Positions 22,236 to 63,802 of a DNA stretch of 64,000 nucleotides are shown piece after piece. Under the pieces are notes generated by a model. It saw nothing but the letters and a program-made list of their open reading frames with translations. It had not been told where the DNA came from and did not search any database. The stretch's first letter is position 1; each line of letters opens with the position of its first letter. The stretch spans positions 1,344,001 to 1,408,000 of the forward strand of contig CBDCWC010000003.1 of assembly GCA_965223295.1 (NCBI GenBank), written 5' to 3'. The position numbers and the translations under genes are program-made. Source of the DNA: Nitrospirales bacterium. GTDB taxonomy: Bacteria > Nitrospirota > Nitrospiria > Nitrospirales > UBA8639.

Positions 22236-22487
22236 TTATCGTGTGCCAATTGGATAAAAGACTGGAAGTTCAATTGTTTCGTCTTCAGCAACAGGAGTTC
22301 CTGGGTATTCAGGGCTTGTTCCCTGTGCTTGATTCTCTTTTTGATGTTTTCTGATCTTGGCTTCAATGCCGACTTCTTCTGGTGCAATGGGTGGACCCAC
22401 GGCGGCACAGCCCTTCAAGACAGTCATGAGGACGAACAAACCTGTTATCACCATCTGCCGACTCACAATTTGATTATGGACATTCAC
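22236..22487 (-). CDS. Small lipoprotein (LptM/YifL-like position between argH and lysA)
   Basis: Lipobox LKG-C followed by AAVGPPIAPE; gene context. Confidence 0.65.
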   Translation of the reverse strand: MNVHNQIVSRQMVITGLFVLMTVLKGCAAVGPPIAPEEVGIEAKIRKHQKENQAQGTSPEYPGTPVAEDETIELPVFYPIGTR

Positions 22488-42516: not shown

Positions 42517-43848
42517 ATGACTGCTGTACACAACCCTTGTGATGTGTTGGTGCTTGGAGCTGGGCCTGCTGGTTCTTCCCTTGCGGCAATTCTGGCAGAA
42601 AAAGGCTGGAAGGTCGATGTGTGGGAAAAAGCTCGCTATCCTCGCTTTCATATTGGAGAATCCTTATTACCTCACTCACTTCCGTATTTAAGCAGTCTGG
42701 GAGTGTTGGAGGAAGTTGAACGGATAGGGATAAACAAATGGGGTGCGGAACTGGTGGCCCCAGATCACCAAGATCCTATCACGCTATATTTTTCAGGAGC
42801 ATTGAATAAATCTCATCCAAAGGCTTTTCAAGTTCGCCGGTCTGAATTTGATGACATCCTATTACGGAATTGCCAGAAGAAAGGCGCTCGGGTCTGTGAG
42901 GAGCTTGAGGCCATAGCGGTGGATTTTTCGGATCCTGCCTGGGCTACGGTCCATGGAAAAAATGCTCAGGGGGCATCGGTGAGTCAGCAGGCACGGCATG
43001 TCGTTGATGCGACGGGACGGCAGACATTTTTGGCGAATCAATTTGGGGCCAAGCATCGTAATCCCCATCATAGCAGTGCCGCTATTTATGGGCATTTTGA
43101 AGGTGTGACCCGGCATTCAGGAAAAGATGCGGGCAATATCACTATTTGTTGGTTTGAACAAGGATGGTTTTGGATCATTCCTCTCCTAGACGGAATTACC
43201 AGCGTAGGGGCAGTGTGTTGGCCTTCGTACTTAAAGTCTCGGAAAGGGGACTTAGAGGAGTTTTTTTGGAAAACGGTCAAAAGTTCGCCGGCTGTGACGG
43301 AACGAATGAAAAATGCTAAAGCAATTATGCCTATTGAGGCAACGGGGAATTTTTCCTATCAATCTAGCGTGATGTCGGGGCCAAAGTTTCTGTTAGTCGG
43401 GGACGCCTTTGCGTTTGTCGATCCCATCTTTTCAAGCGGTGTTCATTTAGCTCTTCATAGCGGAATTCGAGGTGCGGATGTTGTTGAGGCCTATCTGCAG
43501 ACCAATACTCAGGCTCCTCAAATAGCCAAGAAATTTGAGAAGGCTGTGCGTGATGGCCTCGAGATTTATTCCTGGTTCATCTACCGGTTTACTCAACCAG
43601 CCCTTCGCAAGCTATTTATGGGCCCCAAAAATTATTTTCGGATTCAGGAGGCTATTTCCTCCGTGGTGGCGGGGGACATCTTTGGTAAGACCTCAGTCAA
43701 GCCTCGAATTTTTCTCTTTAAAATTCTGTATTATGTCCTGGTTCTACTTGACCTAAAAACCAATCTGGCTCATCATCGTAGGAAGCAAGTGAATGTGGAC
43801 TGTGATTCCAGGGAACCACAGACACGAGAGCAGACTGTTGCCTCATAG
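42517..43848 (+). CDS. Flavin-dependent halogenase-like oxidoreductase 1
   Basis: GAGPAG, PRFHIGESL, Lys in INKWGA, GWFWIIP (WxWxIP) and FVDPIFSSG. Confidence 0.85.
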   Translation: MTAVHNPCDVLVLGAGPAGSSLAAILAEKGWKVDVWEKARYPRFHIGESLLPHSLPYLSSLGVLEEVERIGINKWGAELVAPDHQDPITLYFSGALNKSHPKAFQVRRSEFDDILLRNCQKKGARVCEELEAIAVDFSDPAWATVHGKNAQGASVSQQARHVVDATGRQTFLANQFGAKHRNPHHSSAAIYGHFEGVTRHSGKDAGNITICWFEQGWFWIIPLLDGITSVGAVCWPSYLKSRKGDLEEFFWKTVKSSPAVTERMKNAKAIMPIEATGNFSYQSSVMSGPKFLLVGDAFAFVDPIFSSGVHLALHSGIRGADVVEAYLQTNTQAPQIAKKFEKAVRDGLEIYSWFIYRFTQPALRKLFMGPKNYFRIQEAISSVVAGDIFGKTSVKPRIFLFKILYYVLVLLDLKTNLAHHRRKQVNVDCDSREPQTREQTVAS

Positions 43849-43875
43849 AAAGAACAAGCAAGTAAAAATAGGGTC

Positions 43876-44973
43876 ATGGATCATCGGTTAACCCCTAACA
43901 AAAATTCCGTTCGATCGATTCTGACCGATCTCCCAGAATGGGATCGGTCAACAGTTCCGACTCCATTAACAGGCTCTTATCCCTTGAAAGTGACCTATGT
44001 TCAACTCGATGATTGTTCTCAGATCGGCAGTTTAGAAACATGTCATATTTTAGCGTCAATGACTTACGGAAATAGTACTTCTCAGGCTGTTTTAGGGAAA
44101 GGGCTCAACGTTCAGGTGAATCTCCCCCACTTGACTCAACCACCTGTTGTGGAAATTTGGGAAACATCAGCTTCGGTTCTTCGAGATCAGTTTCAAGATA
44201 TTCGTCTGGCTGTTTCCAATGGAATCGTTTTTGGTTGCTTGGAAACTCGGGAGTCTCCAGGATGTGTGTTAGAAGACGTCGCTCGGGAAGCCTACGAACA
44301 AATATTTGAGTATTGCACACGATCAGGCTTCTCCCATCTTCTGCGCATGTGGAATTATTTCCCTGACATTAATGCCGATCACCATGGGTTAGAGCGTTAT
44401 AAGCGGTTTTGTATGGGACGGCACCAAGCCTTTTCGGAACAATATCAAGATTTTTGGCCACGCCTTCCAGCAGCCAGTGCAGTTGGCACTTCTAGTGGCC
44501 CCTTCCAGCTATTGTTCTTGGCTGGGTCCCAACCTGGAATTCCAGTTGAAAACCCTCGGCAAGTGAGTGCTTATGTCTATCCTGAGATGTATGGTCCCAA
44601 AAGTCCATCCTTTGCACGGGCGACTCTGTGTCATACCTTATCTGGCAGCCATCTTTTTGTGTCAGGGACCGCCAGCATCGTGGGGCATGCCACTCAACAT
44701 CATGGCGATCCAGCCCAACAGACCTTAGAAACATTGTGCAATATTGAAGCAATTCTGAACCGGGTTCGTGATGAGAGTCCAGAGCTAAGGGACGATGAGC
44801 TAACTCACGGTGTCTTGAAGGTCTTTGTACGTAATCTGGAAGATGTCCCCGCGGTCATGCAAGTGTTAGAGCGCCATGAATTTGGGCAGAGCCCTGTAGT
44901 CTATGTGCAGGCAGACATGTGTCGAAAAGAATTGCTTGTAGAAATTGAAGGCACATGGAGTCAGACATCTTAG
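43876..44973 (+). CDS. Chorismatase, FkbO/Hyg5/XanB2 family (hydroxybenzoate starter supply)
   Basis: LRMWNY, PAASAVG, ENPRQVSAY, SPSFARA, SGTASIVGH and LLVEIEG motifs. Confidence 0.88.
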   Translation: MDHRLTPNKNSVRSILTDLPEWDRSTVPTPLTGSYPLKVTYVQLDDCSQIGSLETCHILASMTYGNSTSQAVLGKGLNVQVNLPHLTQPPVVEIWETSASVLRDQFQDIRLAVSNGIVFGCLETRESPGCVLEDVAREAYEQIFEYCTRSGFSHLLRMWNYFPDINADHHGLERYKRFCMGRHQAFSEQYQDFWPRLPAASAVGTSSGPFQLLFLAGSQPGIPVENPRQVSAYVYPEMYGPKSPSFARATLCHTLSGSHLFVSGTASIVGHATQHHGDPAQQTLETLCNIEAILNRVRDESPELRDDELTHGVLKVFVRNLEDVPAVMQVLERHEFGQSPVVYVQADMCRKELLVEIEGTWSQTS

Positions 44974-45095
44974 CCATTAAATGAATGAGGAATCTAGAAC
45001 TTATTCCCAAATTTATTTATGATGACATGAGGTTTGTGTACGAGAATTAGGTTGTTGTTCATTTTAGGAACTTTCTTACAGAGTTGGAGGATTGG

Positions 45096-45512
45096 ATGAT
45101 GAAAAGTCGATTATTGTCACAATGGGTCTTTTTGTCAGTCGCTATGCTGTTGATTATTGGGTGTGGAGGTGGCGCACCTGTTTTGGATATCACTGATGCT
45201 TCGATAACCACAGTCTCTGGCAAGGAACCAACACTAGAAGATGTCACTCGAGCTATTGTCAGTGCTGCAACGGGTTCAACACCCATATGGAATATGCAGG
45301 TTGTAGAACCCGGTCATATTGTGGCCACGTTGCATAATCGAAGACACATGGCCTCTGTCGATATTAACTACACGACCAAGGGGTATAGTATCACTCGCAA
45401 GGAAACATCAAATTTAAAATATAACGCAGAGAAAGGGACGATTCATCCGGGGTATAACAAATGGATTCGGCGCTTAGATAATAATATTCGAGTCAAACTT
45501 TCCATGTTGTAA
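45096..45512 (+). CDS. Lipoprotein of unknown function
   Basis: ggagg RBS; lipobox IIG-C; C-terminal IHPGYNKWIRRL. Confidence 0.75.
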   Translation: MMKSRLLSQWVFLSVAMLLIIGCGGGAPVLDITDASITTVSGKEPTLEDVTRAIVSAATGSTPIWNMQVVEPGHIVATLHNRRHMASVDINYTTKGYSITRKETSNLKYNAEKGTIHPGYNKWIRRLDNNIRVKLSML

Positions 45513-45536
45513 TAGTAAACAGAAATATCAAAAGGC

Positions 45537-45570
45537 ATAAGCCCTATGGTTGAAAAGCCATAGGGCTTAT
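45537..45570. terminator. Bidirectional terminator between convergent cluster operons
   Basis: ataagccctatgg / ccatagggcttat, a perfect 13 bp stem. Confidence 0.85.
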
Positions 45571-45576
45571 TTGTGT

Positions 45577-46377
45577 TTATTTGTGATACGACTGGGAAGG
45601 AGAAATTTTTGAGATATGAGGCTCCTGTTGAGCAAGAGGTTGACCAAACAACGCATGATAGAGGTTTTGTGGAGCCAGTCCTTTAGCTAAGAGTTTCCCC
45701 GCAATCATGAGAGTGATCCGAGCAATATCCACAACCGGGCGAAAATAACTGGGGCGTGGGGCTTGCCGGGGTTCCGACTCAATGGGGACTGGAAGGCTCC
45801 AAAATTCCAGCTTCGCTCCTTCCACCAAGATCTCACTTTCGAACACAAAGCTACGTTCCAGGGTTGTGGGAATGTTCAACTGAGCAAGTAATGACAACGG
45901 GTAAATCCGAAACCCCGATTGGCTATCAGCTATTGGGTGACCGGCAGCCCAGGATACCCAAAAATCGGCGATTCGGTTAGCCAGAATTCTGTGCCAAGTT
46001 TGTCGGGTCCAAGGTCTCCGACGTGCGCCGATAATAATTCGGTGCGGAGTCCTTTCGATTTGTTGAAGAAGTCGGGGAATATCTGCTGGATCATGTTGTC
46101 CATCCCCGTCCAACGTCACGACAGCAGTGACGCCAAGTTGCTGGGCATATTGAAAACCCTTCCAGAGGCTGGCTGCTTTTCCGCAATTGCTGTTGTTGTG
46201 AAGGATAGTAATGGGCAAATCTTCCAAGACTTGGGCTGTTCGATCGGTGGAGCCGTCATTCACGACGATCACAAACTCGAGATAGCGAAGGGATGCCTGA
46301 ACAACATCAAGTATAGTCGTCTCCTCATTGTAAGCTGGAATCACGACAGCATAGGGTTGTGAAGATTGATGATCCAC
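45577..46377 (-). CDS. Glycosyltransferase family 2
   Basis: IPAYNE, VNDGSTD, DGDGQH and DSQSGFR motifs. Confidence 0.9.
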   Translation of the reverse strand: MDHQSSQPYAVVIPAYNEETTILDVVQASLRYLEFVIVVNDGSTDRTAQVLEDLPITILHNNSNCGKAASLWKGFQYAQQLGVTAVVTLDGDGQHDPADIPRLLQQIERTPHRIIIGARRRPWTRQTWHRILANRIADFWVSWAAGHPIADSQSGFRIYPLSLLAQLNIPTTLERSFVFESEILVEGAKLEFWSLPVPIESEPRQAPRPSYFRPVVDIARITLMIAGKLLAKGLAPQNLYHALFGQPLAQQEPHISKISPSQSYHK

Positions 46378-47096
46378 TAAGCCATGGCTCCATTTACGCC
46401 AATAATTTGTCCAGAAAGATAGCTGGCTCTTTCAGAAGCCAAAAATCCCACGACTGAGGCGACTTCATCAGGTTCTCCTGCACGTTTCATAGGTACCATA
46501 CTCTGTATTTGGTCCTCCGTAAATATGCGTTCAGTCGATGGAGAATGAATGAGTCCAGGTGCGACGACGTTGACCGTAATGCCACGAGAGGCGACTTCTG
46601 TGGCTAATGACCGAACGGCGCCATGCAGGCCAGATTTTGCGGCCGAGTAATTCGTTTGTCCTCGATGCCCGACCATTCCAGAGAGAGAGGAAATCGCAAT
46701 GATGCGTCCCCAGCGTGTACGGATCATGGGGAGCAATAGTGGTTGGGTAATGTGAAAAAATCCATGAAGTGAGACGTCGATGACCTTCTTCCATTGTAAG
46801 GCGCTCATGCCGGCCATGGGGGCATCTTCAAAAATACCCGCGTTATGAACGATCACCTGAAGAGGTCCTGTCTCAAGGAGTGTATTCATAGCGATTTCGG
46901 TTGTCGCTCCGTCTGTCAGATCGCAGCAAATGGCTTCGGCAGACTTGCCATTCTCAAGAAGTTGTGTGACATGTTTATGTGTCATTTCAGGGTGTTGATG
47001 CCCATGGATAATCACATGATAATTCATCGAGGCTAGTTCTCGGCAAATAGCGGAACCGATAGGGCTATTTCCGCCCGTCACTAAAGCGCGTTTCAT
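46377..47096 (-). CDS. fabG: 3-oxoacyl-ACP reductase (FabG-like, aryl-polyene type)
   Basis: TGGNSPIG, HNAG and YSAAK motifs. Confidence 0.85.
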   Translation of the reverse strand: MKRALVTGGNSPIGSAICRELASMNYHVIIHGHQHPEMTHKHVTQLLENGKSAEAICCDLTDGATTEIAMNTLLETGPLQVIVHNAGIFEDAPMAGMSALQWKKVIDVSLHGFFHITQPLLLPMIRTRWGRIIAISSLSGMVGHRGQTNYSAAKSGLHGAVRSLATEVASRGITVNVVAPGLIHSPSTERIFTEDQIQSMVPMKRAGEPDEVASVVGFLASERASYLSGQIIGVNGAMA

Positions 47097-47542
47097 AGGA
47101 TCGTTTCTGTGCCTTGAATGAAAATTGAAGCGCGTCCTTCTAGCAGTGATTGTTCCTTTACTTTGATTGTAAATGCATAGATGAAGCTCGTCTGTTGTGC
47201 GAGTATTAACTTCGCTCCAATAGTTAAATCTTCCGGGAATTGTTGGAAACTGAGGCTGTAAATCCGAAGATCTCGAACCGCTCCAAGATACCCAATTGAC
47301 GCATGGCGTTGGGAAGTGTCTCTGGTAAGACCCACGTGGACGCCCATGGCTTGTGCCGCAAATTCTAACCCTGAGAGGATTCCCAAACGGCCCTCGTGTC
47401 GCAAGGGATTGTCATGGTTTCGGTGAGTAGACGAGAGACAAATGATTGATGTGGCGTCCCACTGTTCGACTGAGTTTAGCATACACATCTCTTTGCCATG
47501 CGGCAAAAAGTTGCAGAGTTCTACTCTCGACAAGGCTGGCAT
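47093..47542 (-). CDS. Hotdog-fold ACP dehydratase-like protein
   Basis: LPHGKEMCML and LEFAAQAMGVH motifs. Confidence 0.75.
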   Translation of the reverse strand: MPALSRVELCNFLPHGKEMCMLNSVEQWDATSIICLSSTHRNHDNPLRHEGRLGILSGLEFAAQAMGVHVGLTRDTSQRHASIGYLGAVRDLRIYSLSFQQFPEDLTIGAKLILAQQTSFIYAFTIKVKEQSLLEGRASIFIQGTETIL

Positions 47543-48345
47543 GGTTGGTGGTCAATCTGCAATTGAAGGTTATCCAAGAAGTTCAGGTGCACCGAAGTGG
47601 TGAGATGATTGGCCATAGCATGTAAGAGTGGAAGGCTTCTGGCTGCTGGGCTACCTGAACGCAATTGTTCCAATGAAGTGTGGGACATTGTTGTGGGTGA
47701 TGTTTCCAGGGGTTCTGACAGCAAGGCAATCGTCAATTTAGACAGGCTCTTCGGTGGCGCATGATGGCTGAGGACCATGGCCACAGCAAACGGGGCGGCC
47801 AGCGGACGTGCCTCATTCAAGGGAAATGGCGCGGCAATATCACAAGCAACGAACAACACATATTCTTCTTGATGTGTAGACAACAAAGTGGCCGACTCAA
47901 GCAAACCGCCACTAAATGAAGCATCGTAACACGACAAACTCGTCGATGGACGTTGAGATCCAGATGCAATACTCCAGTAGCCCACCGCCGCATTGTGAAC
48001 GGATTGATGAAATAAGGTTGGAGAAACCATGGGGGGTGATAAGGTAAGTGAGTGACAAATTTTATGCAGTATTTCCGTTTCGCCACCGGAAGAAGCAAAG
48101 ACCGTGGCCATTTCTTTTGAAGACATGTCGCTTTGTCGCACTGCTTCTTGGGCAACTTGTAAAGCCCAGCGAACCACTCCGCTACTCCGACGGCGTTCAT
48201 TCATGGGAAGAACTGAAGGCATGGGGTCGGGTATCTGTGTGAAACTCTCAGGTATCTGAGAGTCTGGTTGCAGCTGGTTTTGGCATTCTTGCCAATTTGC
48301 TAAGTTTGGCCCTAGCACTCCGATACCATGAACAAAGATTTCCAC
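47521..48345 (-). CDS. Beta-ketoacyl synthase chain-length factor
   Basis: NERRRS, VFASSGGE and SPTLFHQSVHNAAVGYW; catalytic triad absent. Confidence 0.85.
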   Translation of the reverse strand: MEIFVHGIGVLGPNLANWQECQNQLQPDSQIPESFTQIPDPMPSVLPMNERRRSSGVVRWALQVAQEAVRQSDMSSKEMATVFASSGGETEILHKICHSLTLSPPMVSPTLFHQSVHNAAVGYWSIASGSQRPSTSLSCYDASFSGGLLESATLLSTHQEEYVLFVACDIAAPFPLNEARPLAAPFAVAMVLSHHAPPKSLSKLTIALLSEPLETSPTTMSHTSLEQLRSGSPAARSLPLLHAMANHLTTSVHLNFLDNLQLQIDHQPCQPCRE

Positions 48346-49541
48346 TAGCTTTTTCCCAAAATCAACGTGCAGTTATTGCCGCCAAATCCAAAAAAGTTAC
48401 TCATGATATGTTGGAGTGGTCGTTCTTCGTTTTTCAACAGAACGTGACTGGAAAAAGTCGGGTCGATCTGGGTTGTATTCAAGCAGCCAGGAAGAAATCC
48501 ATATTGGAGGCAGAGATCTCCAATGACGGCTTCGACGGCTCCTGCAGCGCCTAATGTATGGCCAGTCCATCCTTTGGTTGAACTACAAGGTGTTTGGGAT
48601 CGAAACAGCGTGGCAATAGCGCGGTCTTCGGTTTGGTCATTGGCCTTCGTTGCTGTTCCATGCATATGAATAAAATCAATGTCAGATGGGGAAAGGTGGC
48701 TGCTCTTCAGCGAAGCTTCCATGGCGATGATTGCACCTTGCCCGGTGGGATGAGGATGGGACATATGGTAAGCATCGCTACTTTCGCCATATCCCAAGAG
48801 AACGGACGTGGATTGATTCTCAGCATGAGGGGTTTTCTCTAAAAAGACAAAGGCGGCCGCTTCACCAATGGTCAATCCATCACGGTCCTTATCACAGGGC
48901 CGGCAGGGCCCAGCAGCAGTTAATTGTAATGAGGAAAATCCATACAAGGTGGTTTGGCAGAGACTATCAACTCCCCCAACGATCGCAGCTTCGCAGAGCC
49001 CCGCCTGAATATACCGCGCAGCGGTGGCAAAAACTTTTGCGCTTGAGGAACAGGCCGTGGAAATGGCAACGGCTGGTCCTGTGAGTTGCAGGTAGTCGCG
49101 GATAAAATGGGCGACAGAAAAGACTTCTTGGGTATACCGGCATCGTGGAAGAAATGTGCTAGGAAGTCGTCCAGTTTCTGGATCCCGGTTTTGGTATGCA
49201 TGTTCCGTTTCCAGAATCCCTGAGGTGCTGGTGCCAATGAGAACAGCAATTCTCTGAGCACCATATTGTTGACGGGCGTCAGCAATACGGTCTTCAAAGC
49301 CATCTTGCTTTAGGCCTAACATGGCCAATCTATTATTTCGACAATCAAAATGGCTAAGACGTGGAATAAGCGATAGCGTATCCAAGCCTTTCACCATACC
49401 CATATAGGTGGGAAGCTTGGTGCCTTCAAAATCGCAAGGCGTGAGACCAGATTGGCCTTTCTGTAGAGCGACAAGATGGTCTTGCTTGCCTCGACCAAGA
49501 GCGGTGACGAGAGTGGAAAGAGAGAATGAGAGAGGGGCCAT
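48345..49541 (-). CDS. Beta-ketoacyl-ACP synthase (aryl-polyene KS)
   Basis: STACSSS, HGTAT and GHTLGAAG (Cys-His-His triad); FGFGGNN. Confidence 0.92.
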   Translation of the reverse strand: MAPLSFSLSTLVTALGRGKQDHLVALQKGQSGLTPCDFEGTKLPTYMGMVKGLDTLSLIPRLSHFDCRNNRLAMLGLKQDGFEDRIADARQQYGAQRIAVLIGTSTSGILETEHAYQNRDPETGRLPSTFLPRCRYTQEVFSVAHFIRDYLQLTGPAVAISTACSSSAKVFATAARYIQAGLCEAAIVGGVDSLCQTTLYGFSSLQLTAAGPCRPCDKDRDGLTIGEAAAFVFLEKTPHAENQSTSVLLGYGESSDAYHMSHPHPTGQGAIIAMEASLKSSHLSPSDIDFIHMHGTATKANDQTEDRAIATLFRSQTPCSSTKGWTGHTLGAAGAVEAVIGDLCLQYGFLPGCLNTTQIDPTFSSHVLLKNEERPLQHIMSNFFGFGGNNCTLILGKS

Positions 49542-49550
49542 GTGTGCGGG

Positions 49551-51080
49551 TTACGCCATCTGTTTGCTTGATTGGGTCTCGAGGAGGGTATTGGCCTGTT
49601 CATAACCATGACGGAAGATAGCCCGGAGACGCGTTACTGATTCATGAGGCGTCAGGGGTTGTCCGATTTCGTTCAACCAATCAATCCCTTCCAGGGCATC
49701 TGTGAAATTCCCCAGGTTCCCCCGGTACAAAGCCTGATTTTTCTGGAGATGTCGTTCAACTTTCTGAAACAGCTGAGAAAATATTGAGAGGGAATTGAGG
49801 ACCTGCTGTTGCTCTTGGACCTGATCAGCAAGGAACTGCTCATTGAGATGAAGGTCTTGCATAAACTCTGATAGCCAGAGGTGATAGTACAAGGGAAGAT
49901 CTAATTGAAACTTCAGCTTGAGCAGCTCATAGCTGGCAAACACGGAATAGAGGTTGTGATACAGGTGCATGTTTGCCTCATAGCGAAAGTGCATGTAGGC
50001 ATTCGAGAGGTTCACGAGATTTTCCAGGTGAGAAGAAGAAGCCCCTTCTTCTTCATGGCGAATAAAATTGGTGATGAAATCATTTTCCAACGCAATAAAG
50101 TCTGATCCTGGGCTATAAAACGGATCGGAAAATGCTGCAGATTCACCGGTTAACCCCCAACGGTTTGAACTGAAAAATTGTTTAGTGGCATAAGTCAGAT
50201 GCTGGAAGCTGCCGATGTCCAGCAATTCAGCTTCCTGGAGCAACGACCATGCAGCATGATGTTGTTTGAGAAAGTTTAAGAATCCTTTTCCTTTTCGCAG
50301 AGTTTCTTGCCAGCCAAAGCGACGGTCCATGACGATACCCACGCTCACAATATCCTGGCTAATGGGAATAAACCAGATCCAATACCCGGGATAGCAAAAA
50401 TGAACCGTCGATGCTCGGCGGCTCGTGCCATTGACCCGTTGGCGGAAAGTCTCTGGACCGATATAGTCCATATCAACCACATTTCTAAATCGCCCCCATA
50501 CGGATCCTACGGTATGGTGTGGGCATGCAATTCGTAAGTCTTCTTGCTTGGCGAGAATGGAAGAACGGCCAGTGGCATCAATCAGCCATCGGCTCTGACC
50601 ATTCAATTGTGTGGTCTCAGTTTCCACAGCAAATGTATGAGGCGAAGAATCGGAACTGAGCTGAATCCCATTCACTCGGCTTCCAAGGTGAAGTTCAACG
50701 CCATCTTCCTGATTCATCTGTAGGAGGTCGGCCTCTAACCGTGAGCGATCAATTTGAAAACTCTTAAAAAAAGGCGTTTGTATTCCCCCAATTTCACTCA
50801 TCTCAGTTAATGGGGCTTGACGGTTTTCCTGATCAAAGAAAAAACGCAGTCCATTCTTCAGGATATGATGTTTGGTGAGATAGTTCTCCAAGCCAAGCCG
50901 CCGAATCAGATAATTTCCCGTGACTTCAACCGTGGATTCTCCCACTTTAAAAGTGGTAGAGCGTTGTTTTTCGAATATCCCCACTTTGAGGTGCGGAACG
51001 GTCTGCCGCAGTTGCCTGGCTAAGAGATTACCGGCTAGCCCTCCACCGAGAATAGCGATATCAAGATGATGGTGTGCCAT
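49551..51080 (-). CDS. Flavin-dependent halogenase-like oxidoreductase 2
   Basis: GGGLAG, KVGESTVE, Lys in ILKNGLRF, YWIWFIP (WxWxIP) and FSDPFYSPG. Confidence 0.8.
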   Translation of the reverse strand: MAHHHLDIAILGGGLAGNLLARQLRQTVPHLKVGIFEKQRSTTFKVGESTVEVTGNYLIRRLGLENYLTKHHILKNGLRFFFDQENRQAPLTEMSEIGGIQTPFFKSFQIDRSRLEADLLQMNQEDGVELHLGSRVNGIQLSSDSSPHTFAVETETTQLNGQSRWLIDATGRSSILAKQEDLRIACPHHTVGSVWGRFRNVVDMDYIGPETFRQRVNGTSRRASTVHFCYPGYWIWFIPISQDIVSVGIVMDRRFGWQETLRKGKGFLNFLKQHHAAWSLLQEAELLDIGSFQHLTYATKQFFSSNRWGLTGESAAFSDPFYSPGSDFIALENDFITNFIRHEEEGASSSHLENLVNLSNAYMHFRYEANMHLYHNLYSVFASYELLKLKFQLDLPLYYHLWLSEFMQDLHLNEQFLADQVQEQQQVLNSLSIFSQLFQKVERHLQKNQALYRGNLGNFTDALEGIDWLNEIGQPLTPHESVTRLRAIFRHGYEQANTLLETQSSKQMA

Positions 51081-51083
51081 AAA

Positions 51084-53426
51084 TTAGGCTGGATATTCCT
51101 TCTGTGCAGGTGAACAGATGGCTGCAAAAACAAAGCAGAGGAGCGCCCCCAAAAATGCTGTAAGCCCAATGCCATGGAGTACAGGCGTCTCAGAGCAGGC
51201 TAGCAGACCAAATATTGTGATAGTTGTGAGACTGCATACGAATATGGCGGAAATAGTTTGCTGACGCTCGGTTGTTGTGTGATGAGGGCGTTGGTAAAAC
51301 AAGGTGTAATCCAAACCAATTCCGAAGACCAATAACAAGGACGCCAGATGAAATAAGGAAAGGCGTTCCCCCAGGGCATGGAGAATGGCTAGGTCGAGCA
51401 TAATCGAGCCTGCGATAGGAAGCAAGACAGTAGCGACTTTGCTAAAAGACTGAAGCCCGAGGCATAAAATGAGGATCAGGAAGCCGATGCCCATCAGTAA
51501 GTATCTCGTGACTTCTTCACGATAGGTTGTGACCATGCCGTTTGATTCGGTTTTCAGGTCCAGGTAATGCACTGACGAGAGAGAGCCCGTTTGAAGGGCT
51601 TGTTGGAGGGCTTGGCGATCGTTGACATCACGGAGAAGAATGGTGCCAACCCATTGCTCCTGATGAGGGTAAAGCAATGACTGGATCTTTGTCCCGAGGG
51701 GTGTGGGTTGTAGAGCCTCGAAATCCAGTGGTCTTAGGTTTTTCGCTTGGGTTATGCTTTCTATGAATGGCTCAAAGAGGCCCTGTTTAAAAGGCAAATC
51801 TTTTTGGGCTTCGATGAGATGCCTTTTTAATGAATTCTCGTCCGGTAATGCCTGTTGTCGTGATATCTGAGCTTTCATACTGGGCAAGTAATCTGCGGCC
51901 ATTTCATACCCAGACAAATGTTTCTGGCTGACCAATTGATCTAATGTGGTTTTCAATGTTTCGCTCTGTTCTAAAACCTGTTGGTCATCTGGTGCGACGA
52001 CCACCATCATGTCCCGCACAGCGGGTGCCCCTAGTTCTTTTCGTAACCAGGCATCGCGGTCACGGAGGGTCTGAGGGACGGGGCTCAGATTCGCGATATC
52101 CACCTCCCAAAAAGGCCTGTCGGACCAACTCAGATACATGAAAGACAAGATCATGCTGATGGGCACGAGGAGCATCAGTTTTGAGCCACCGGGCTGAAGT
52201 GGAAGCCAGGTGGCCCAGGGTAGAGGCGGTTTCACCTTCCCAGGAGCCAGGGTCGGAAGTATCCATCGAGTTGCTGCTGCGGCCGTGAGTAGGCCACTGA
52301 TGGCAAACAATCCCAATTGTGACAGTCCAGGAAAGCCTGAGAATAACATGGCTCCATAACCAATGGCGGTCGTGGTGGCTCCCAGCCGTATCGTAGGCCA
52401 GACTTGTTGAATGGCTGTTTTGGGAGATTCATGAGATTTCAGATGTGCACAAGCATGGAGAGGGTAATCAATCGCCACCCCAATTAACGTGGCGCCAAAG
52501 GCCAAGGTCATGCCGTGGATAAATCCAAACACCAGATACACAGTGATTCCAGCTACGAGGAGCCCCGTGAGAAGAGGCACCAGGCTCAGAAACAGGATTG
52601 TAAATGATCGATAGGTGACCAATAGCAGGGCGATGACGAATCCTCCCCCAAGCATGGAGAGCCAGCGGGCATCCTGCTGAATGACAGAGCGAGCCTGCAC
52701 AGCAAAGACCGAGGGACCTGAGCGAACTAATTCAAGGGCTGCTGGTGATGAATGGCTTGAGAGGGTGGTCCGAATGTCTTTCATTGTCGTTGTCAAAAAC
52801 ACCTGAATAGCTTCTTGTCCATCCAGATCAAATCCCGACGTGGCTGTCTCTGCGAAAAGCAGGGCAAGATCTTCATCAGTAGAAAACCACACCCCATGGA
52901 CCACCTTCATTGCGTTCTTGGACTTCCAGCGACTCAATATGTTTTGAAATTCACCGGTAGGATCTTCAGGGATGCGTTTTTTAAAAAACGCAGGCAGAGG
53001 ATTGGATAGATCTTGGAGCCGATGTTCCAAGCTCTGTCGTAACCTGTCTGTGGTGAATCGTTCGGGAGAAATCGTCGGGCTGAGAAGGTACCGGTATTGA
53101 TAGAGCAGCTCTTGATCGGATCCCAGATTTTGGCCTTCTCCGTTATAGACATGAAGGAATTGATTGTCGTTCCGCATAGCCGCGGCCAGTTTCTTGCTGG
53201 CCTCAGCTAGGAGAGGCGACGGTGCTCCCTGTATTCCTAACAACAGAATTCTGGATGAAGGCCCGGACTGCAGTTGATCCACAAATAATTGTTGTGAAAG
53301 GGACCCTGTTGAGGGAAGCAGGAGAGGCAGTTCTGTTTGAATGGGAATAGACGAGAGGGCAAATGCAGACCCCAGGGTCATAACGAGTAACCACAGAACC
53401 CAGGGTGTGGCTCGGACGTCCGTCAC
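51084..53426 (-). CDS. MMPL/RND-family exporter
   Basis: Two membrane bundles with GVAIDYP and GIGLDYT motifs, separated by large periplasmic loops. Confidence 0.88.
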   Translation of the reverse strand: MTDVRATPWVLWLLVMTLGSAFALSSIPIQTELPLLLPSTGSLSQQLFVDQLQSGPSSRILLLGIQGAPSPLLAEASKKLAAAMRNDNQFLHVYNGEGQNLGSDQELLYQYRYLLSPTISPERFTTDRLRQSLEHRLQDLSNPLPAFFKKRIPEDPTGEFQNILSRWKSKNAMKVVHGVWFSTDEDLALLFAETATSGFDLDGQEAIQVFLTTTMKDIRTTLSSHSSPAALELVRSGPSVFAVQARSVIQQDARWLSMLGGGFVIALLLVTYRSFTILFLSLVPLLTGLLVAGITVYLVFGFIHGMTLAFGATLIGVAIDYPLHACAHLKSHESPKTAIQQVWPTIRLGATTTAIGYGAMLFSGFPGLSQLGLFAISGLLTAAAATRWILPTLAPGKVKPPLPWATWLPLQPGGSKLMLLVPISMILSFMYLSWSDRPFWEVDIANLSPVPQTLRDRDAWLRKELGAPAVRDMMVVVAPDDQQVLEQSETLKTTLDQLVSQKHLSGYEMAADYLPSMKAQISRQQALPDENSLKRHLIEAQKDLPFKQGLFEPFIESITQAKNLRPLDFEALQPTPLGTKIQSLLYPHQEQWVGTILLRDVNDRQALQQALQTGSLSSVHYLDLKTESNGMVTTYREEVTRYLLMGIGFLILILCLGLQSFSKVATVLLPIAGSIMLDLAILHALGERLSLFHLASLLLVFGIGLDYTLFYQRPHHTTTERQQTISAIFVCSLTTITIFGLLACSETPVLHGIGLTAFLGALLCFVFAAICSPAQKEYPA

Positions 53427-54079
53427 GGAACCTTGGGGGCCAGTTGGAGCTCGGATCGATCACCACTCGTTTCATAAATGGCGATGTTGCCAAGGTGTGA
53501 CTGCTGCCCCTTAAGGCGGATACAGTCTACACCTTCTCTGTCCTGATGTGTGATAGGAGCAAGCTGTAGTTGCCAGATTTGGTATGTGCCTGCCATCGAA
53601 ACATGAAAAATTTTTCGAAGAGTGTGTTCGTCTCCGTTAAAAAGGGCTCGTAAGCCTTCAACTAACGTTGCCAGGGACGGGTATTCTCGCAGAGAAAAGG
53701 TTCGGGAGATTTTCCGGGAAAGGTTTTCATACAGTAGGCTATCTCCTTCGATGATGAAGGATTCTTCACTTGGCATGTACACATGCTTTTCTAGGTGGTT
53801 AGGTGGGTGAAAGGCCAACGTGCCTTCCTTGTGTGATGGAGTTGTCAGCATGTGAGAGTGATAGGTCTCATGAAAGGATCGCGCACTGATTGTCGATTGC
53901 TTCAGATTTTCAATAACTTGAGATAATTCAGGATGTTTGTCTGAAAAGGAAATAGATGGTTGGGTGTCTGAACTGGATTCACATCCATAGGCAGACGGAG
54001 AGGCTGCGACCTGTAGGCACAGTCCCCAACAGATGATGCAACAGAAAATTGGCTTACTGATCTGTTTCCCAAAAATCAT
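53423..54079 (-). CDS. LolA-like lipid/lipoprotein carrier protein
   Basis: Signal peptide; FHETY...EGTLAFHPPNHLEK...WQLQLAP; start trimmed. Confidence 0.72.
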   Translation of the reverse strand: MIFGKQISKPIFCCIICWGLCLQVAASPSAYGCESSSDTQPSISFSDKHPELSQVIENLKQSTISARSFHETYHSHMLTTPSHKEGTLAFHPPNHLEKHVYMPSEESFIIEGDSLLYENLSRKISRTFSLREYPSLATLVEGLRALFNGDEHTLRKIFHVSMAGTYQIWQLQLAPITHQDREGVDCIRLKGQQSHLGNIAIYETSGDRSELQLAPKVP

Positions 54080-54950
54080 AAAAATTAAACCAATTGTTTG
54101 GAGCCATCTGGCAGTAATGTTCCAAGCGATGCGCATATCGTTGAGTCCATTTCTGAATCCCTTGGGCTCGATTTTCTCGTGCAATAGATACGAGTTCGGT
54201 AAATAGTTCAAAGTGAATATCATACCGCCCGCCACCACGATACAAACAAAAAAATAACACGACTGGTACCTTGAGGATACTGGCCAGTAACATCGGTCCA
54301 GAAGGAAATTGCGCGCGGTGCCCGAAAAATTCACAATGTACTACCTTTTCATGTTTGAGGGGGCGATCACCTAGCATACCCACGAGGCCACCTGCATCAA
54401 GGCATTCTTTGGCGCGTAACATGGTCTCTGGTTCGCCGACAGGGATAATGCAATCGGGGAGGGAAGGATCAAGTTTCATCAATACCTCATTCAGAATTGG
54501 GGCGTTCTCTTGATGCATCAGTAGCTTAATTGGGACGTTCCTGTGGGCTAACCCTGTGGCTCGGAGTATCTCGAAACTTCCTAAGTGTGAACCAAGAAGG
54601 AGACAGCCCTGTTTGCGGTCAACGCGACTCAAAAGTACGTCTTGATCGCGAATTGTGAGGTCAAATTCGTCGTGGCGTCCAGCTAAAATGAAAGTCCGGT
54701 CTAACAATGTTGAGGCAAAAGCATGATATTGATGAAAAAGATCAGTGAGCGTCACAGGACGCTGCAAGACGCGCCTTAAAAAGGTCTTTATCCCTCTGCT
54801 TGCCGTCCAGGAAAACAACACATAATAGACACATATGGGGTACAGTAAGACGCGGGCAGTTTTTCTTCCCAGCCGGAGTGCCACCCACAGCATGAACTGG
54901 TAGGCCCAGGGTTGTCCCCGTTCCCGCTGTGCCAGCCAACGTTTACTCAT
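54054..54950 (-). CDS. Lipid A lauroyltransferase-like acyltransferase
   Basis: WLAQRERG, LLGSHLGSFE, MLGDR and WFNFYDFW motifs. Confidence 0.87.
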   Translation of the reverse strand: MSKRWLAQRERGQPWAYQFMLWVALRLGRKTARVLLYPICVYYVLFSWTASRGIKTFLRRVLQRPVTLTDLFHQYHAFASTLLDRTFILAGRHDEFDLTIRDQDVLLSRVDRKQGCLLLGSHLGSFEILRATGLAHRNVPIKLLMHQENAPILNEVLMKLDPSLPDCIIPVGEPETMLRAKECLDAGGLVGMLGDRPLKHEKVVHCEFFGHRAQFPSGPMLLASILKVPVVLFFCLYRGGGRYDIHFELFTELVSIARENRAQGIQKWTQRYAHRLEHYCQMAPNNWFNFYDFWETDQ

Positions 54951-55264
54951 GAGGGAAAGTGTCGTTCACTGGCTTGAAAACGGAATTGGCCGGAGGCAAT
55001 TCGCTTTGAGCCAACTTGGCATGTGAAGGTCACCTCATAGTCGGGAAGGATATCGAATGTGAGTTGAACAACTTCGCTTGGGCGGAGAGGGGAATGAAAC
55101 TTAATAGAAGGCACTGCGGAAAGCAGCCAGGGCGTTTCTAGAGACTGGTTTACTCGTCCAAGAATTTCTCCAAGCATGACGACTCCTGGTACAATAGGAT
55201 TCCCTGGGAAATGCCCGGATAACGAAGGGTGCGAAGGAGGTATGGTGAAGGTAGTCATGGGCAT
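54947..55264 (-). CDS. FabZ/FabA-like dehydratase
   Basis: HPSLSGHFPGNPIVPGV and KFHSPLRP motifs. Confidence 0.85.
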   Translation of the reverse strand: MPMTTFTIPPSHPSLSGHFPGNPIVPGVVMLGEILGRVNQSLETPWLLSAVPSIKFHSPLRPSEVVQLTFDILPDYEVTFTCQVGSKRIASGQFRFQASERHFPS

Positions 55265-55280
55265 AACAGGAACCCGTTAT

Positions 55281-56630
55281 TTAGCCGGCGGGTGCTACGA
55301 TTGGGCTTTTGTGGGTCAACATTAACTTATCGATATCATCTTTGAGTAATTTCCCCGTACGGTTACGAGGAAGTGTTTTTACGAGATACATCGGACGTGG
55401 TAAAAATACAGGCGCTATTTTTGTGCGAAGGGCTGTGAGGATAGATTCAGTACTTTTCCCTGGCGCCACCACAAAGGCCATTAAACGTGTCACGGATTCT
55501 TTTTCATCTTCCGGCATATAAAACGTCCCATCGAGGACGCCATCAATAGATAGGAGTTTCACATTCAAATCATCCAGTGATGCGCGATGTCCTCCAATGT
55601 TAATGAGATGGCTAGGGCGTCCTTCCAACGTGAATTGCTGTGGGTTTGTTGCCTGAATGGTATCAGGAATGGGCACAGAGCTTGAAAAATACGGCGTACT
55701 GACGGCATAGCCATCACTATCCCCCACCAGAGCGAGATCAGATAGCAACGTCCAATGATTTTCTTGAACTGGCTGGCGGGTGGCAATGGTGCCCGCCTCC
55801 GCAAACCCATAGATTTCTACCATCGTGGTCTGAAGCAATGTTTCTACGTCCTGTGCTAGAGACTTGGGGAGAGGAGCTGTCGCGGAAAGTACATAGTTCA
55901 CTTCTGGAAATTTGGTTTCTGCCTTCACGCAGGCACGGAGATGAATGGGAGTCGAAACTAAAATTTTTTTAGAGGCATGTTGGTGCAAGACCGTCGCAAT
56001 GTCCTCAGGGAAAAAAGGCCTTCCCGAGTGATATGACCATCCCTGTTGCAGGGGTAACATGATGGATGTTTCTAAACCATACATATGTTGATGAGGGACG
56101 GTGGCTATAATAGTCACTGGACCCTGATCTGAGACAAGCACCCGTTGGGCAGTTTTTTTGGCAATCTGGACCATGGAGCCCCATGATTTGAGATTTGGGC
56201 GAGGAAGGCCGGTTGTTCCAGACGTAAAGGCAATCGCGGCAATATGCGTATCAAGAATGTTGGGATTCTTTAGGGGCGGCTGATCGGGGATGGAATCAAT
56301 TTTGACGGAAAGACCTTCTATGCCTTCAATCTGAATTGGTTCATCTGTTACATAGTAGCAATCTGGATACTCGCGTAGAAGTTGTTGAAAAACCTCTGGT
56401 GATTGATTGGGTGGGAGCAAGGTCGTTTGGTTGTGAGAGAGGGCTGCCGCGAAACTTATTAAAAAGGCATAGCGATCTTGGCACAGATTCATGACGTATT
56501 GGTTGCGAGGCAGTTGATCGTGAATAGATCTGACGTGCGATAAGAAAGTGTGAGCAAACATGGCTCTTCCATGGTACCAAGCAACGGGATCATCCTGTTG
56601 ATATGGACCAAGAAATGGTGAAGTGGTCAT
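55281..56630 (-). CDS. AMP-dependent aryl acid:ACP ligase (XanA2-like)
   Basis: FTSGTTG, TVPHQHMYG, SATAPL, EIYG and LPRNRTGK motifs. Confidence 0.87.
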   Translation of the reverse strand: MTTSPFLGPYQQDDPVAWYHGRAMFAHTFLSHVRSIHDQLPRNQYVMNLCQDRYAFLISFAAALSHNQTTLLPPNQSPEVFQQLLREYPDCYYVTDEPIQIEGIEGLSVKIDSIPDQPPLKNPNILDTHIAAIAFTSGTTGLPRPNLKSWGSMVQIAKKTAQRVLVSDQGPVTIIATVPHQHMYGLETSIMLPLQQGWSYHSGRPFFPEDIATVLHQHASKKILVSTPIHLRACVKAETKFPEVNYVLSATAPLPKSLAQDVETLLQTTMVEIYGFAEAGTIATRQPVQENHWTLLSDLALVGDSDGYAVSTPYFSSSVPIPDTIQATNPQQFTLEGRPSHLINIGGHRASLDDLNVKLLSIDGVLDGTFYMPEDEKESVTRLMAFVVAPGKSTESILTALRTKIAPVFLPRPMYLVKTLPRNRTGKLLKDDIDKLMLTHKSPIVAPAG

Positions 56631-56777
56631 GTGGTGGTTTGAAGGGATGAATCGTGATTGGTGAGGAAGAAGTTGACTGGGCAGGAGGCATCCCTCAAAT
56701 AATAACTGGTCTTCGAAAGAGCAAAGGGTCTTAGGAAAATTTTTATGGGTTGTAGATAGTCCAAGGGTATTCTGCTA

Positions 56778-57047
56778 TTAGGTAGTAACCCTGTTCTTCT
56801 GGATCGTTTCACACAGCGACCGAAGGGATGAAAAGATGGTCGCATTGTCCGGATCATCCGAGCGTAATTTGTATCCGTAATTCTGATGAACGACCAGGGC
56901 AATTTCTAAAGCATCGATGGAATCCAATCCTAAGCCTTCTCCAAATAAGGGATCTAACGGAGGAATGTCTGCTGGTTGTACTTTCAAGTTCAGTGTGGTC
57001 ACAAGGAGTTGAGCGATTTCGGTTTCAAAAGGGGTCTGGTCAGGCAA
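56778..57047 (-). CDS. Acyl carrier protein (XanC-like)
   Basis: LFGEGLGLDSIDALE phosphopantetheine motif; aggagg RBS with TTG start. Confidence 0.93.
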   Translation of the reverse strand: MPDQTPFETEIAQLLVTTLNLKVQPADIPPLDPLFGEGLGLDSIDALEIALVVHQNYGYKLRSDDPDNATIFSSLRSLCETIQKNRVTT

Positions 57048-59144: not shown

Positions 59145-59247
59145 AACCACCTCAGATTCGTTGGCTCACATTGAGAAGCTGGGAAGACGAGAAAAATTTG
59201 GTACAGTATCAGAGAACAACTGGAAGAACCCGAACGTTGGAGGAAGA

Positions 59248-59862
59248 ATGACACCATTGGCTTTGAGACGTGTATGCTGCGCGATCGTTGGGTTTGTCCT
59301 TATTGGCGGGTTTGGCAATAATGTTGAGGCGAAAGCTGGAGAGGATGATTCGGTCCTTATTTCTGGCGGGGGGGGAATTTTTTACCCATTTAAGGGTAAA
59401 TCAGGCTTCAATGCGGTGGTTCAAGCTGCAGGAAAAATTACACCTCAGGAACGAATGGGAGTGGAATTGGAGTATCGTCAATATGAAACGGAGCTGTTTA
59501 ATGCGAAGGATATTGATACACAGTCCTATATTTTTCGCATATTTGGCCACTATCTTTTCCCATTACGGGGGATCACTCCCTATCTGGGGATTGGGTTGAA
59601 TATGGCGGTCAATGTCTTCGACAAGAAAGAAATTGAAAGAAAGCGACCTTCGGTCAATGTAAAACGAGGTTGGGGTTTTGGGTACGGCATTATGGGATTA
59701 GCGGGTGTAGAGGTTCCGGTGGGGAGAGTGATTTTTTTTGGAGAAGGTCGGGTGAGTGGTGATTTTCAACTCTCTAACTATAAAAAGTCCGGGAAGAATA
59801 AAATTAGGATTGAAAATTTTAGTGGTCTTACTGGGATGGGTGGGATTCGCGTTCGCTTTTAG
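59248..59862 (+). CDS. Outer-membrane beta-barrel protein (8-stranded type)
   Basis: ggagg RBS, signal peptide, TPYLGIG, alternating strands and terminal Phe (GIRVRF). Confidence 0.75.
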   Translation: MTPLALRRVCCAIVGFVLIGGFGNNVEAKAGEDDSVLISGGGGIFYPFKGKSGFNAVVQAAGKITPQERMGVELEYRQYETELFNAKDIDTQSYIFRIFGHYLFPLRGITPYLGIGLNMAVNVFDKKEIERKRPSVNVKRGWGFGYGIMGLAGVEVPVGRVIFFGEGRVSGDFQLSNYKKSGKNKIRIENFSGLTGMGGIRVRF

Positions 59863-63119: not shown

Positions 63120-63183
63120 ATGTTGAACAGGGAAAAAAAAGGAAAGATAGGCTCCGGCGACCAGCCGGAGCCTAAAGAAAACC

Positions 63184-63699: not shown

Positions 63700-63802
63700 G
63701 CGGTTCCTCCTTAATGAATGGTGGTAAACAAGGGGGTGATTGACAATGTACGCCACTATAACAGGATTTCATCTAAGAAAAAGATAGATAATTGATGCCG
63801 CA

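Follow-up and report, generated by a model that had tools for sequence, protein, structure and literature searches.

A cluster of 15 genes resembling those for xanthomonadins and other aryl-polyene (APE) lipids lies at positions 42517-57047 of a 64-kb stretch of a Nitrospirales genome (GenBank assembly GCA_965223295.1, contig CBDCWC010000003.1, positions 1,344,001-1,408,000 of the forward strand). This whole stretch was analyzed and is called the window below. Three genes form a plus-strand group (halogenase Hal1, chorismatase and a lipoprotein), and the others form a minus-strand group, which is read in the order acyl carrier protein (ACP), AMP-forming ligase, dehydratase subunit DH1, acyltransferase, LolA-like carrier, MMPL exporter, halogenase Hal2, ketosynthase (KS), chain length factor (CLF), dehydratase subunit DH2, FabG and GT2 glycosyltransferase. 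The features are as follows.

42517-43848, plus strand: Hal1, predicted flavin-dependent halogenase (XCC4013/ArcA-like), 443 aa; Pfam Trp_halogenase, 72.7 bits
43876-44973, plus strand: chorismatase of the FkbO/Hyg5/XanB2 family, 365 aa; Pfam PF21168, 122 bits
45096-45512, plus strand: small lipoprotein, 138 aa; lipobox LIIGC after a hydrophobic N-terminus
45537-45570, both strands: hairpin, candidate bidirectional terminator; 15-bp stem, 4-nt loop
45577-46377, minus strand: GT2 glycosyltransferase, polyprenyl-phosphate sugar synthase-like, 266 aa; Glycos_transf_2, 88 bits
46377-47096, minus strand: FabG/XanH-like 3-oxoacyl-ACP reductase, 239 aa; NF004200, 317 bits (cut-off 273)
47093-47542, minus strand: DH2, ApeP-like hot-dog dehydratase subunit, 149 aa; profile A2
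47521-48345, minus strand: CLF-like KS partner, 274 aa; Pfam Ketoacyl-synt_2, 100.5 bits
48345-49541, minus strand: KS of the APE type, 398 aa; NCBIfam NF006618, 518.5 bits (cut-off 407)
49551-51080, minus strand: Hal2, second predicted flavin-dependent halogenase, 509 aa; Pfam Trp_halogenase, 38.4 bits
51084-53426, minus strand: MMPL/RND-type exporter, 780 aa; Pfam MMPL, 47.3 bits
53423-54079, minus strand: LolA-like periplasmic carrier, start uncertain; Pfam LolA_3, 59.9 bits
54054-54950, minus strand: LpxL-type (lipid A biosynthesis family) acyltransferase, 298 aa; Pfam Lip_A_acyltrans, 49.5 bits
54947-55264, minus strand: DH1, ApeI/FabZ-like dehydratase subunit, 105 aa; profile A3 and catalytic His motif
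55281-56630, minus strand: short AMP-forming ligase, predicted to act on aryl acids, 449 aa; Pfam AMP-binding, 66 bits, and AMP-binding_C
56778-57047, minus strand: dedicated ACP, 89 aa; NF006617, 116 bits (cut-off 70), and Pfam PP-binding

All 15 open reading frames (ORFs) named in a preliminary description of this DNA were found at their places and on their strands, and the arrangement proposed there, two convergent operons meeting at a shared terminator, was borne out: the stop codons at 45512 and 45577 are 64 nt apart, with a single hairpin between them. The hairpin is followed on the plus strand by TTTGTGTTTA, and the T tract on the minus strand is weaker. Terminator-like sites as a class were not enriched relative to shuffled sequence (18 versus 14.1 expected), and only the central hairpin was taken as evidence. 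The minus-strand genes mostly overlap, as had been described: this holds for seven of the 11 junctions (-1, -4, -22, -1, -4, -26 and -4 nt), whereas three are gaps of 3-16 nt and one, from the ACP to the ligase gene, is a gap of 147 nt with no stable fold (z = -0.32). The genes also appear free of frameshifts, in agreement with the same description, and their lengths match those of homologs (KS, 398 versus 398-399 aa; chorismatase, 365 versus 365-369 aa; Hal2, 509 versus 508-521 aa). The G+C content of the cluster (0.46-0.51) is inside the range of the window.

Matches above the Pfam gathering cut-off were obtained for 12 of the 15 genes (Trp_halogenase twice, FkbO_Hyg5-like_N, GT2, adh_short_C2/KR, Ketoacyl-synt_2, ketoacyl-synt N and C, MMPL, LolA_3, Lip_A_acyltrans, AMP-binding and PP-binding), and three (KS, ACP and FabG) exceeded an NCBIfam curated cut-off. 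Some gene calls were revised. The long ORF initially assigned to the LolA-like protein (53423-54334, GTG start) overlaps the acyltransferase gene by 281 nt, and its LolA_3 domain occupies residues 138-294; ATG 54079, which gives a signal-peptide-like N-terminus, is the likelier start. An ORF at 56627-56902, which overlaps the ACP gene and has no family match, is probably not a gene. The lipoprotein, whose signal peptide ends in its lipobox, is better started at ATG 45096 than at TTG 45084.

The predicted polyene synthase core and genes for anchoring and export

Related loci were collected with a 45-sequence KS alignment, taking one genome per species; the best 80 of 580 confirmed loci (591 stretches) were used, and their gene content was determined by tblastn with the window proteins. 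This sample excludes the genome of the window itself and close Nitrospirales relatives, and its best match is 61% identical.

The best matches of the KS in the Protein Data Bank (PDB) were 6qsp_A (1e-72) and 7f28_B (1e-70), with the best FabF at 2e-51, and the KS scored 230 bits against the FabF model TIGR03150, whose cut-off is 494. Residues C164, H294 and H328 are kept in the KS alignment (A1). The KS gene (PF00109/PF02801) is followed, with a 1-nt overlap, by a gene for a truncated CLF that consists of the KS N-terminal part only (PF13723), which is the pairing typical of APE clusters; the sole PDB matches of this CLF were 6qsp_B (1e-10) and 7f28_A (2e-10). We take 6qsp and 7f28 to be ApeO:ApeC complexes, and 6qsr to be an ApeI:ApeP complex, of aryl-polyene synthases.

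As single sequences, both dehydratase subunits fell below the family models: DH1 reached 22.8 bits on the Pfam ApeI-like model (cut-off 28.5), and DH2 matched no Pfam model at E<=0.01 (its E value on the ApeP-like model was 0.015, below cut-off). A profile of 17 DH1 sequences (A3) matched FabZ structures and 6qsr_A (8.6e-11), and the His of GHFPGxP is invariant in all 17; a profile of DH2 and 16 homologs from related loci (A2) gave one PDB match, 6qsr_B (7.5e-13). In collinear related loci, DH2 directly follows the CLF gene. The two proteins resemble the two-subunit dehydratase of APE systems and would form a putative heterodimer. FabG also scored 241 bits on the flexirubin FlxB model, below its cut-off. 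No enoyl reductase was found among the 15 genes of the cluster with Pfam and NCBIfam, although a housekeeping reductase could still act.

The ACP carries its phosphopantetheine-site serine in the motif GLDSID, and its gene has a GGAGG ribosome-binding site. The ligase holds the position of XanA2, ArcT and ApeH; its best NCBIfam model was 4-coumarate-CoA ligase (TIGR02372, 106 bits, below cut-off). Ligase homologs were present in 39 of the 80 loci and, in the collinear ones, always stood beside ACP and DH1. ACP and ligase thus appear to be the dedicated carrier protein and aryl ligase of an APE cluster, with the aryl substrate predicted from sequence.

The acyltransferase, GT2, LolA-like and RND/MMPL proteins, which make up the anchoring and export set that accompanies APE clusters, all four scored above their Pfam cut-offs. 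The acyltransferase occupies the same place as ArcR in the Azoarcus cluster, and its homologs were found in 50 of the 80 loci, as were those of the MMPL protein, for which the best NCBIfam models were HpnN- and HAE3-like (below cut-off). GT2 homologs occurred in 48 (best NCBIfam model PpgS-like, below cut-off). The LolA-like protein reached 27 bits on the flexirubin LolA2 model, again below cut-off. The lipoprotein belongs to no Pfam or NCBIfam family; tblastn placed its matches near KS in 10 of the 80 loci, and its nearest Atlas clusters, one of them mostly from Nitrospirota, are labeled 'lipoprotein family', which we treat as a lead only.

Chorismatase and halogenases

A chorismatase of the FkbO/Hyg5/XanB2 family adjoins the polyene operon, as in the xanthomonadin subtype of APE clusters. 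Its PDB matches were Hyg5 (5ag3, 6e-51) and FkbO (4bps, 1.5e-39), and its Gly, Cys and Glu residues align with G240, C327 and E334 of Hyg5, whereas FkbO has Ala at the first two positions. The same three residues are present in eight chorismatase homologs linked to proteobacterial polyene loci, and these, like the window protein, have PAAxAxG where both Hyg5 and FkbO have PAATGIG. In PMC7170507, a Gly-Gly-Cys set is described as the mark of enzymes that form 3-hydroxybenzoate (3-HBA) and the Glu as the essential acid; one Gly of this Hyg5-type set could not be placed with confidence in the window protein. The chorismatase is predicted to be a hydroxybenzoate synthase, forming 3-HBA and possibly also 4-hydroxybenzoate (4-HBA), the two compounds made by enzymes of the XanB2 type.

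The five best PDB matches of Hal1, all of them named halogenases, were ChlB4 (7fco, 3e-58), 5buk, PltA (5dbj), CndH (3e1t) and 8zop, of which ChlB4, 5buk (Mpy16), PltA and CndH presumably act on substrates bound to carrier proteins. Hal2, encoded between MMPL and KS, diverges more: CmlS (3i3l, 1e-19) was its best PDB match, and its identity to Hal1 is 25%. Both proteins carry the four motifs GxGxxG, an aligned Lys, WxWxIP and FxDPxxSxG. In Hal1 these are GAGPAG, K74 (aligned with the ChlB4 Lys), GWFWIIP and FVDPIFSSG, and in Hal2 they are GGGLAG, K75 (aligned with a Lys of CmlS), YWIWFIP and FSDPFYSPG. WxWxIP was kept in 110 of 114 full-length Hal2 homologs. The Lys and WxWxIP separate halogenases from monooxygenases. 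The product of the cluster is probably halogenated, judging from these motifs.

Homologs of Hal1, with 42-50% identity, were found near KS in 7 of the 80 loci and beside chorismatase homologs in five. Hal1 adjoins the chorismatase gene, as do XCC4013 and ArcA, and is placed with them by subtype, as a putative counterpart of XCC4013. In loci of Lysobacteraceae and Rhodanobacteraceae, halogenase-like genes located after KS-CLF-GT2 share 30-36% identity with Hal2. The place of these genes is that of XCC4001 after XCC4000, a comparison by position, and Hal2 is a candidate for the XCC4001 type.

Related loci, phylogeny and known systems

The order ACP-ligase-DH1-acyltransferase-LolA-MMPL-KS-CLF-DH2-FabG was collinear in 9 of the 80 loci, including a locus in a Nitrospira metagenome-assembled genome (MAG), L002, and loci of beta-proteobacteria. 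A halogenase between MMPL and KS occurred in none of these nine, all from other genomes. Chorismatase homologs were detected in eight of the 80 loci, Hal1-type halogenases in seven and Hal2-type halogenases in 14; two loci (L011 and L015) had both halogenases and the chorismatase.

For the KS phylogeny, 84 sequences were used (the window, 74 loci and nine database proteins), six of the 80 loci having been dropped with coverage below 80%; the tree was a quick IQ-TREE run with LG+G4 and was made without XCC3998, Lysobacter enzymogenes ORF17, Escherichia coli ApeO and labeled FabF/FabB. A clade of 12 sequences from Bacillota, Bacteroidota and others, whose loci have no CLF or MMPL homolog, split off with support 99, so that 72 sequences with APE context stand against 12 without it, with this support on both sides. 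The rest of the tree consisted of a 23-sequence clade (Enterobacteriaceae, Shewanella and others; support 100) and a 46-sequence group. The window KS falls in a 44-sequence clade (SH-aLRT 98) together with Lysobacteraceae, Rhodanobacteraceae, beta-proteobacteria and all Nitrospirales sequences. A grouping of the KS with FabB/FabF, which the preliminary description had named as an outcome that would speak against its proposal, was not seen, and the KS is apart from the FabF-like clade. The nearest relative of the Nitrospirales clade in this tree was L001, a 14-kb contig of a MAG labeled Gammaproteobacteria (61% identity). L015, with the full two-halogenase cluster, comes from a contig that had been binned with the actinobacterium Candidatus Planktophila lacus. 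Both placements may be binning errors or gene transfers.

Organisms named among the top 120 matches of each protein were all Nitrospirota (five for KS, nine for chorismatase and four for Hal2), and the chorismatase matches include Candidatus Nitrospira salsa. Longest contigs of the same size link the KS, chorismatase and Hal2 match lists in 31 cases, five of them across all three lists; by pairs, there were 12 cases for KS and chorismatase, 15 for KS and Hal2 and 14 for chorismatase and Hal2, and some of these contigs are just 9-56 kb long. Because KS, chorismatase and Hal2 each have many Nitrospirota homologs, often on contigs of equal size, the cluster looks like a trait of the Nitrospirales lineage and not a one-off. 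The Nitrospirales origin of the DNA, given in the preliminary description, agrees with the organism names of the top homologs and with the 16S gene, which contains an exact site for the genus-Nitrospira probe Ntspa662 at 5818-5835 and a site with one mismatch for the phylum probe Ntspa712 (probe sequences from PMC5256632). This gene belongs to an rRNA operon at 5161-10311 (16S, tRNA-Ile GAT, tRNA-Ala TGC, 23S and 5S). The preliminary description presumed a nitrite-oxidizing host; no nxr gene was found in the 64-kb window.

A close counterpart among known systems is the pig/xan cluster of Xanthomonas campestris. In both, one halogenase adjoins the chorismatase and a second is more distant, and both have KS/CLF, FabG, a single ACP, a short AMP ligase, a pair of hot-dog dehydratases, GT2, an acyltransferase, a LolA-like protein and an MMPL exporter; the Xanthomonas reference genes include XCC3998 for KS and FabG3/XanH. 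In the supplement tables of PMC3949708, halogenase XCC4013 adjoins XanB2 (XCC4014) and AMP ligase XCC4015, and the second halogenase, XCC4001, is listed directly after glycosyltransferase XCC4000. According to PMC6859482, which cites Cao et al. 2018, XanC is the ACP and XanA2 the 3-HBA:ACP ligase. The window differs in phylum, in the two tight convergent operons, and in having a lipoprotein instead of an AMP ligase after the chorismatase; relative to the Lysobacteraceae and Rhodanobacteraceae loci, it differs in the place of Hal2, between MMPL and KS and not after KS-CLF-GT2. Identities of the window proteins to proteobacterial counterparts are 25-61%.

A similar order is present in the arcuflavin genes of Azoarcus sp. 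BH72, in which, according to the tables of PMC3949708, arcA (halogenase) and arcB (chorismatase) form a pair and arcP-T encode exporter, LolA, acyltransferase, dehydratase and ligase; both sets run in the same order as in the window. Clusters of Dechloromonas, Variovorax and Sideroxydans are described there as related to the arcuflavin clusters. However, arcuflavin is a polyene-dialkylresorcinol hybrid that needs DarA/DarB, and the Azoarcus genes are at two unlinked loci, whereas no FabH-type KS III, other Dar or ammonia-lyase family was found with Pfam among 49 ORFs searched in the window, which sets the cluster apart from the flexirubin/arcuflavin type, although such genes could lie elsewhere in the genome. 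The ape clusters of E. coli CFT073 and Xenorhabdus doucetiae, as described in PMC8253772, share KS with a truncated CLF, the ApeI/ApeP pair, ketoreductase, ligase, ACP, glycosyltransferase, acyltransferase, LolA-like, RND/MMPL and lipoprotein genes, and the E. coli cluster also opens with the lipoprotein gene. In contrast, the E. coli type is described as drawing its 4-HBA starter from ubiquinone metabolism, with neither chorismatase nor halogenase; the window KS is in a different, well-separated clade from the enterobacterial APE proteins, and counterparts of ApeB, F, G, K, N and R (methyltransferase, second ACP, COG4648, thioesterase, DUF3261 and second KS) were not seen in the window.

Aryl-polyene clusters have been reported in the same lineage. 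An antiSMASH survey lists them in N. inopinata, N. lenta, N. japonica and N. sp011405515 (PMC9765116), and one is reported in a Nitrospiraceae MAG (PMC13055281). As far as their available parts go, these surveys give the class label only, with no gene content, chorismatase, halogenase or product. We found neither a product nor a chorismatase/two-halogenase subtype described for the Nitrospira lineage in the literature, subscription journals aside. The claim of novelty in the preliminary description still stands for the product, as far as this literature goes, but was overstated for the cluster, whose class had already been recorded in Nitrospira.

Several genes outside the cluster deserve mention. 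Two of them may belong to it:

57417-59144, plus strand: possible extension, B12-binding radical SAM protein; Pfam Radical_SAM and B12-binding
59134-59862, plus strand: possible extension, outer-membrane beta-barrel-like ORF, 242 aa; Atlas lead only

These two genes overlap, are divergent from the ACP gene and match no NCBIfam model above its cut-off. A B12-radical SAM gene beside a halogenase-chorismatase pair is listed for Dechloromonas (PMC3949708 supplement tables). In the 80 loci, tblastn found relatives of the radical SAM protein near KS in one and of the outer-membrane protein in none, which does not support an extension of the cluster. A methyltransferase of the UbiE/MenG family lies at 60304-61068, 3.3 kb beyond the ACP gene. 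It is below all NCBIfam cut-offs (on the methyl-plastoquinone MpqE model, 114 versus 335 bits) and could be either a quinone enzyme or a pigment O-methyltransferase.

Elsewhere in the window, two adjacent genes at 30890-34367 encode proteins with PCP_red, the C-terminal domain of the protochlorophyllide reductase 57 kD subunit, which is odd in a non-phototroph: the first, of 698 aa, combines Usp domains with three PCP_red stretches, and the second, a radical SAM/SPASM protein, has a single stretch. A second large B12-binding radical SAM protein (20261-22408, 715 aa, no assigned family) is encoded beside lysA/dapA/dapB and argH/argF/argD. At 61212-63756, the domains Lnb_N, DUF7843 and DUF7840 occur together in a 686-aa protein of unassigned function, and a DUF3015 protein follows it, and a 601-aa ORF on the minus strand (13424-15229) has no Pfam family.

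Predicted product and alternative explanations

The gene content and protein families, the conserved catalytic motifs, the synteny, the KS phylogeny and the spread among Nitrospirota point to a gene cluster of the Nitrospirales lineage for an aryl-polyene lipid of the xanthomonadin type, and we estimate the probability of this explanation at about 0.75. The gene functions assigned in the preliminary description agree with the family and structure searches, and so does its proposal of a xanthomonadin-like branch, which is supported by the similarity of KS/CLF and the dehydratases to solved APE enzymes, by the KS tree and by the parts and synteny shared with Xanthomonas and Azoarcus. The individual chemical steps, the halide, the anchor and the physiological role are predicted from the gene families. 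The chorismatase would convert chorismate to 3-HBA, possibly with some 4-HBA, and the short AMP ligase would load this hydroxybenzoate onto the dedicated ACP. KS/CLF, FabG and DH1/DH2 would then extend the starter with malonyl units, and because there would be no enoyl reduction, a conjugated polyene would result, predicted to be yellow and membrane-bound like the Xanthomonas pigments. Hal1 and Hal2 might introduce as many as two halogens, and the probable substrate of Hal1 is the aryl starter on the ACP. The LpxL-type acyltransferase and GT2 could attach the acyl chain to a lipid or glycolipid anchor, and the MMPL protein, LolA-like carrier and lipoprotein could carry the pigment to the outer membrane, where a pigment of this kind would protect against damage by light and peroxide.

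Several observations weigh against this explanation. The chorismatase reached 227.6 bits on TIGR04444, under the family cut-off of 325, and according to PMC3949708, the product of a chorismatase is not predictable from alignment. L002, the one Nitrospira locus inspected, contains the core only, with no chorismatase or halogenase within 10 kb. To call the KS clade a xanthomonadin clade is to use related families as proxies, as it includes no Xanthomonas sequence, and linkage in Nitrospirota is suggested indirectly, by equal contig sizes and not by reading the contigs. Promoter-like sites were not above shuffled sequence (15 versus 17.3 expected). Among the 49 ORFs searched with Pfam, there was neither a second KS or ACP nor a thioesterase, a PlsC-type acyltransferase, a MipA-like protein or a DUF3261/LolB-like protein, all known from characterized clusters of this kind, and the only methyltransferase nearby is the UbiE-like one, with no clear O-methyltransferase in the window. 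In the published Azoarcus table, ArcD, a second, PlsC-type acyltransferase, and ArcC, a MipA-like outer membrane protein, are beside the chorismatase; the absence of such genes bears on the completeness of the cluster, as claimed in the preliminary description, and not on its class, and the literature consulted does not show them to be essential.

It is possible, though rather unlikely, that the product is a non-halogenated aryl-polyene lipid and that the halogenase-like flavoproteins are inactive, have another target, or are hydroxylases or reductases. Models of geranylgeranyl reductases and monooxygenases also match both Hal1 and Hal2, below cut-off, Pfam and NCBIfam revealed no flavin reductase in the cluster, and XCC4013 itself is annotated 'reductase/halogenase' in the supplement tables of PMC3949708. 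Xanthomonas pigments bear 0-2 Br, and the xanthomonadin-like pigment of L. enzymogenes is non-brominated; however, the reason given for the latter in PMC3691225 is that the L. enzymogenes cluster lacks a halogenase gene. Hal1 and Hal2, for their part, keep the Lys and WxWxIP, the latter almost throughout the Hal2 homologs. Another explanation, which we consider improbable, is that the plus-strand operon is a neighbor by chance and serves separately, either to make 4-HBA for methyl-plastoquinone or to make a hydroxybenzoate signal, halogenated or not. XanB2 is described as also feeding ubiquinone synthesis, and 3-HBA as a diffusible factor in Xanthomonas. The methyl-plastoquinone pathway of Nitrospirota is related, according to PMC12998194, to the ubiquinone pathway, which starts from 4-HBA; MpqC is named there among the Mpq proteins homologous to proteins of the plastoquinone and ubiquinone pathways. 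The core without a chorismatase in L002 and the UbiE-family methyltransferase near the window cluster would also fit a separate operon. If MpqC is, as its name leads us to assume, a UbiC-type 4-HBA synthase, the quinone pathway would have its own source. The halogenase-chorismatase pair stands beside polyene genes in Xanthomonas, Azoarcus and Dechloromonas, as listed in the published tables, as well as in the five loci noted above, and the 12 same-sized contigs with both KS and chorismatase homologs in Nitrospirota go down to 9,008 bp. Furthermore, the ligase and ACP need an aryl starter, for which the cluster encodes no other source. The chorismatase could serve quinone synthesis too, but this is unlikely to be its sole role because it is linked to polyene genes across phyla.

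It might also be asked whether the cluster is an operon related to fatty-acid or lipid A synthesis, its product being a common acyl lipid (saturated or hydroxy) instead of a polyene pigment, since the FabG, FabZ-like, KS and LpxL-like families are common to primary lipid metabolism. This is very improbable: the tree sets the KS apart from the FabF-like clade with the support given above, the truncated CLF and the ApeP-like subunit match only APE structures in the PDB, there is no enoyl reductase, and the operon is linked to genes for an aryl-acid ligase, a chorismatase and halogenases.

According to bioRxiv 10.1101/2020.12.19.423268, no family of biosynthetic clusters is regarded as more widespread in Gram-negative bacteria than that of the aryl polyenes, and such a cluster in a Nitrospira-like genome is therefore unsurprising in itself. 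Our analysis adds that the cluster found in Nitrospirales can be assigned to the xanthomonadin subtype and includes a chorismatase and two predicted halogenases of its own, and that homologs of the cluster genes are spread over dozens of Nitrospirota contigs. The gain is incremental, a lineage-specific member of a well-known cluster family that opens up no new kind of system.

Nitrite oxidizers are sensitive to light and peroxide. A halogenated antioxidant lipid, if such is the product, could contribute to the way in which they handle light and reactive oxygen, and brominated or chlorinated aryl polyenes would extend beyond Proteobacteria. It is a tentative proposal that a large clade of Nitrospirales nitrite oxidizers makes a di-halogenated, xanthomonadin-like aryl-polyene lipid that is constantly present in the outer membrane and serves there as antioxidant and photoprotectant; if true, a halogenated lipid pigment would be known for the first time in nitrifiers, with a bearing on their sensitivity to light and peroxide.

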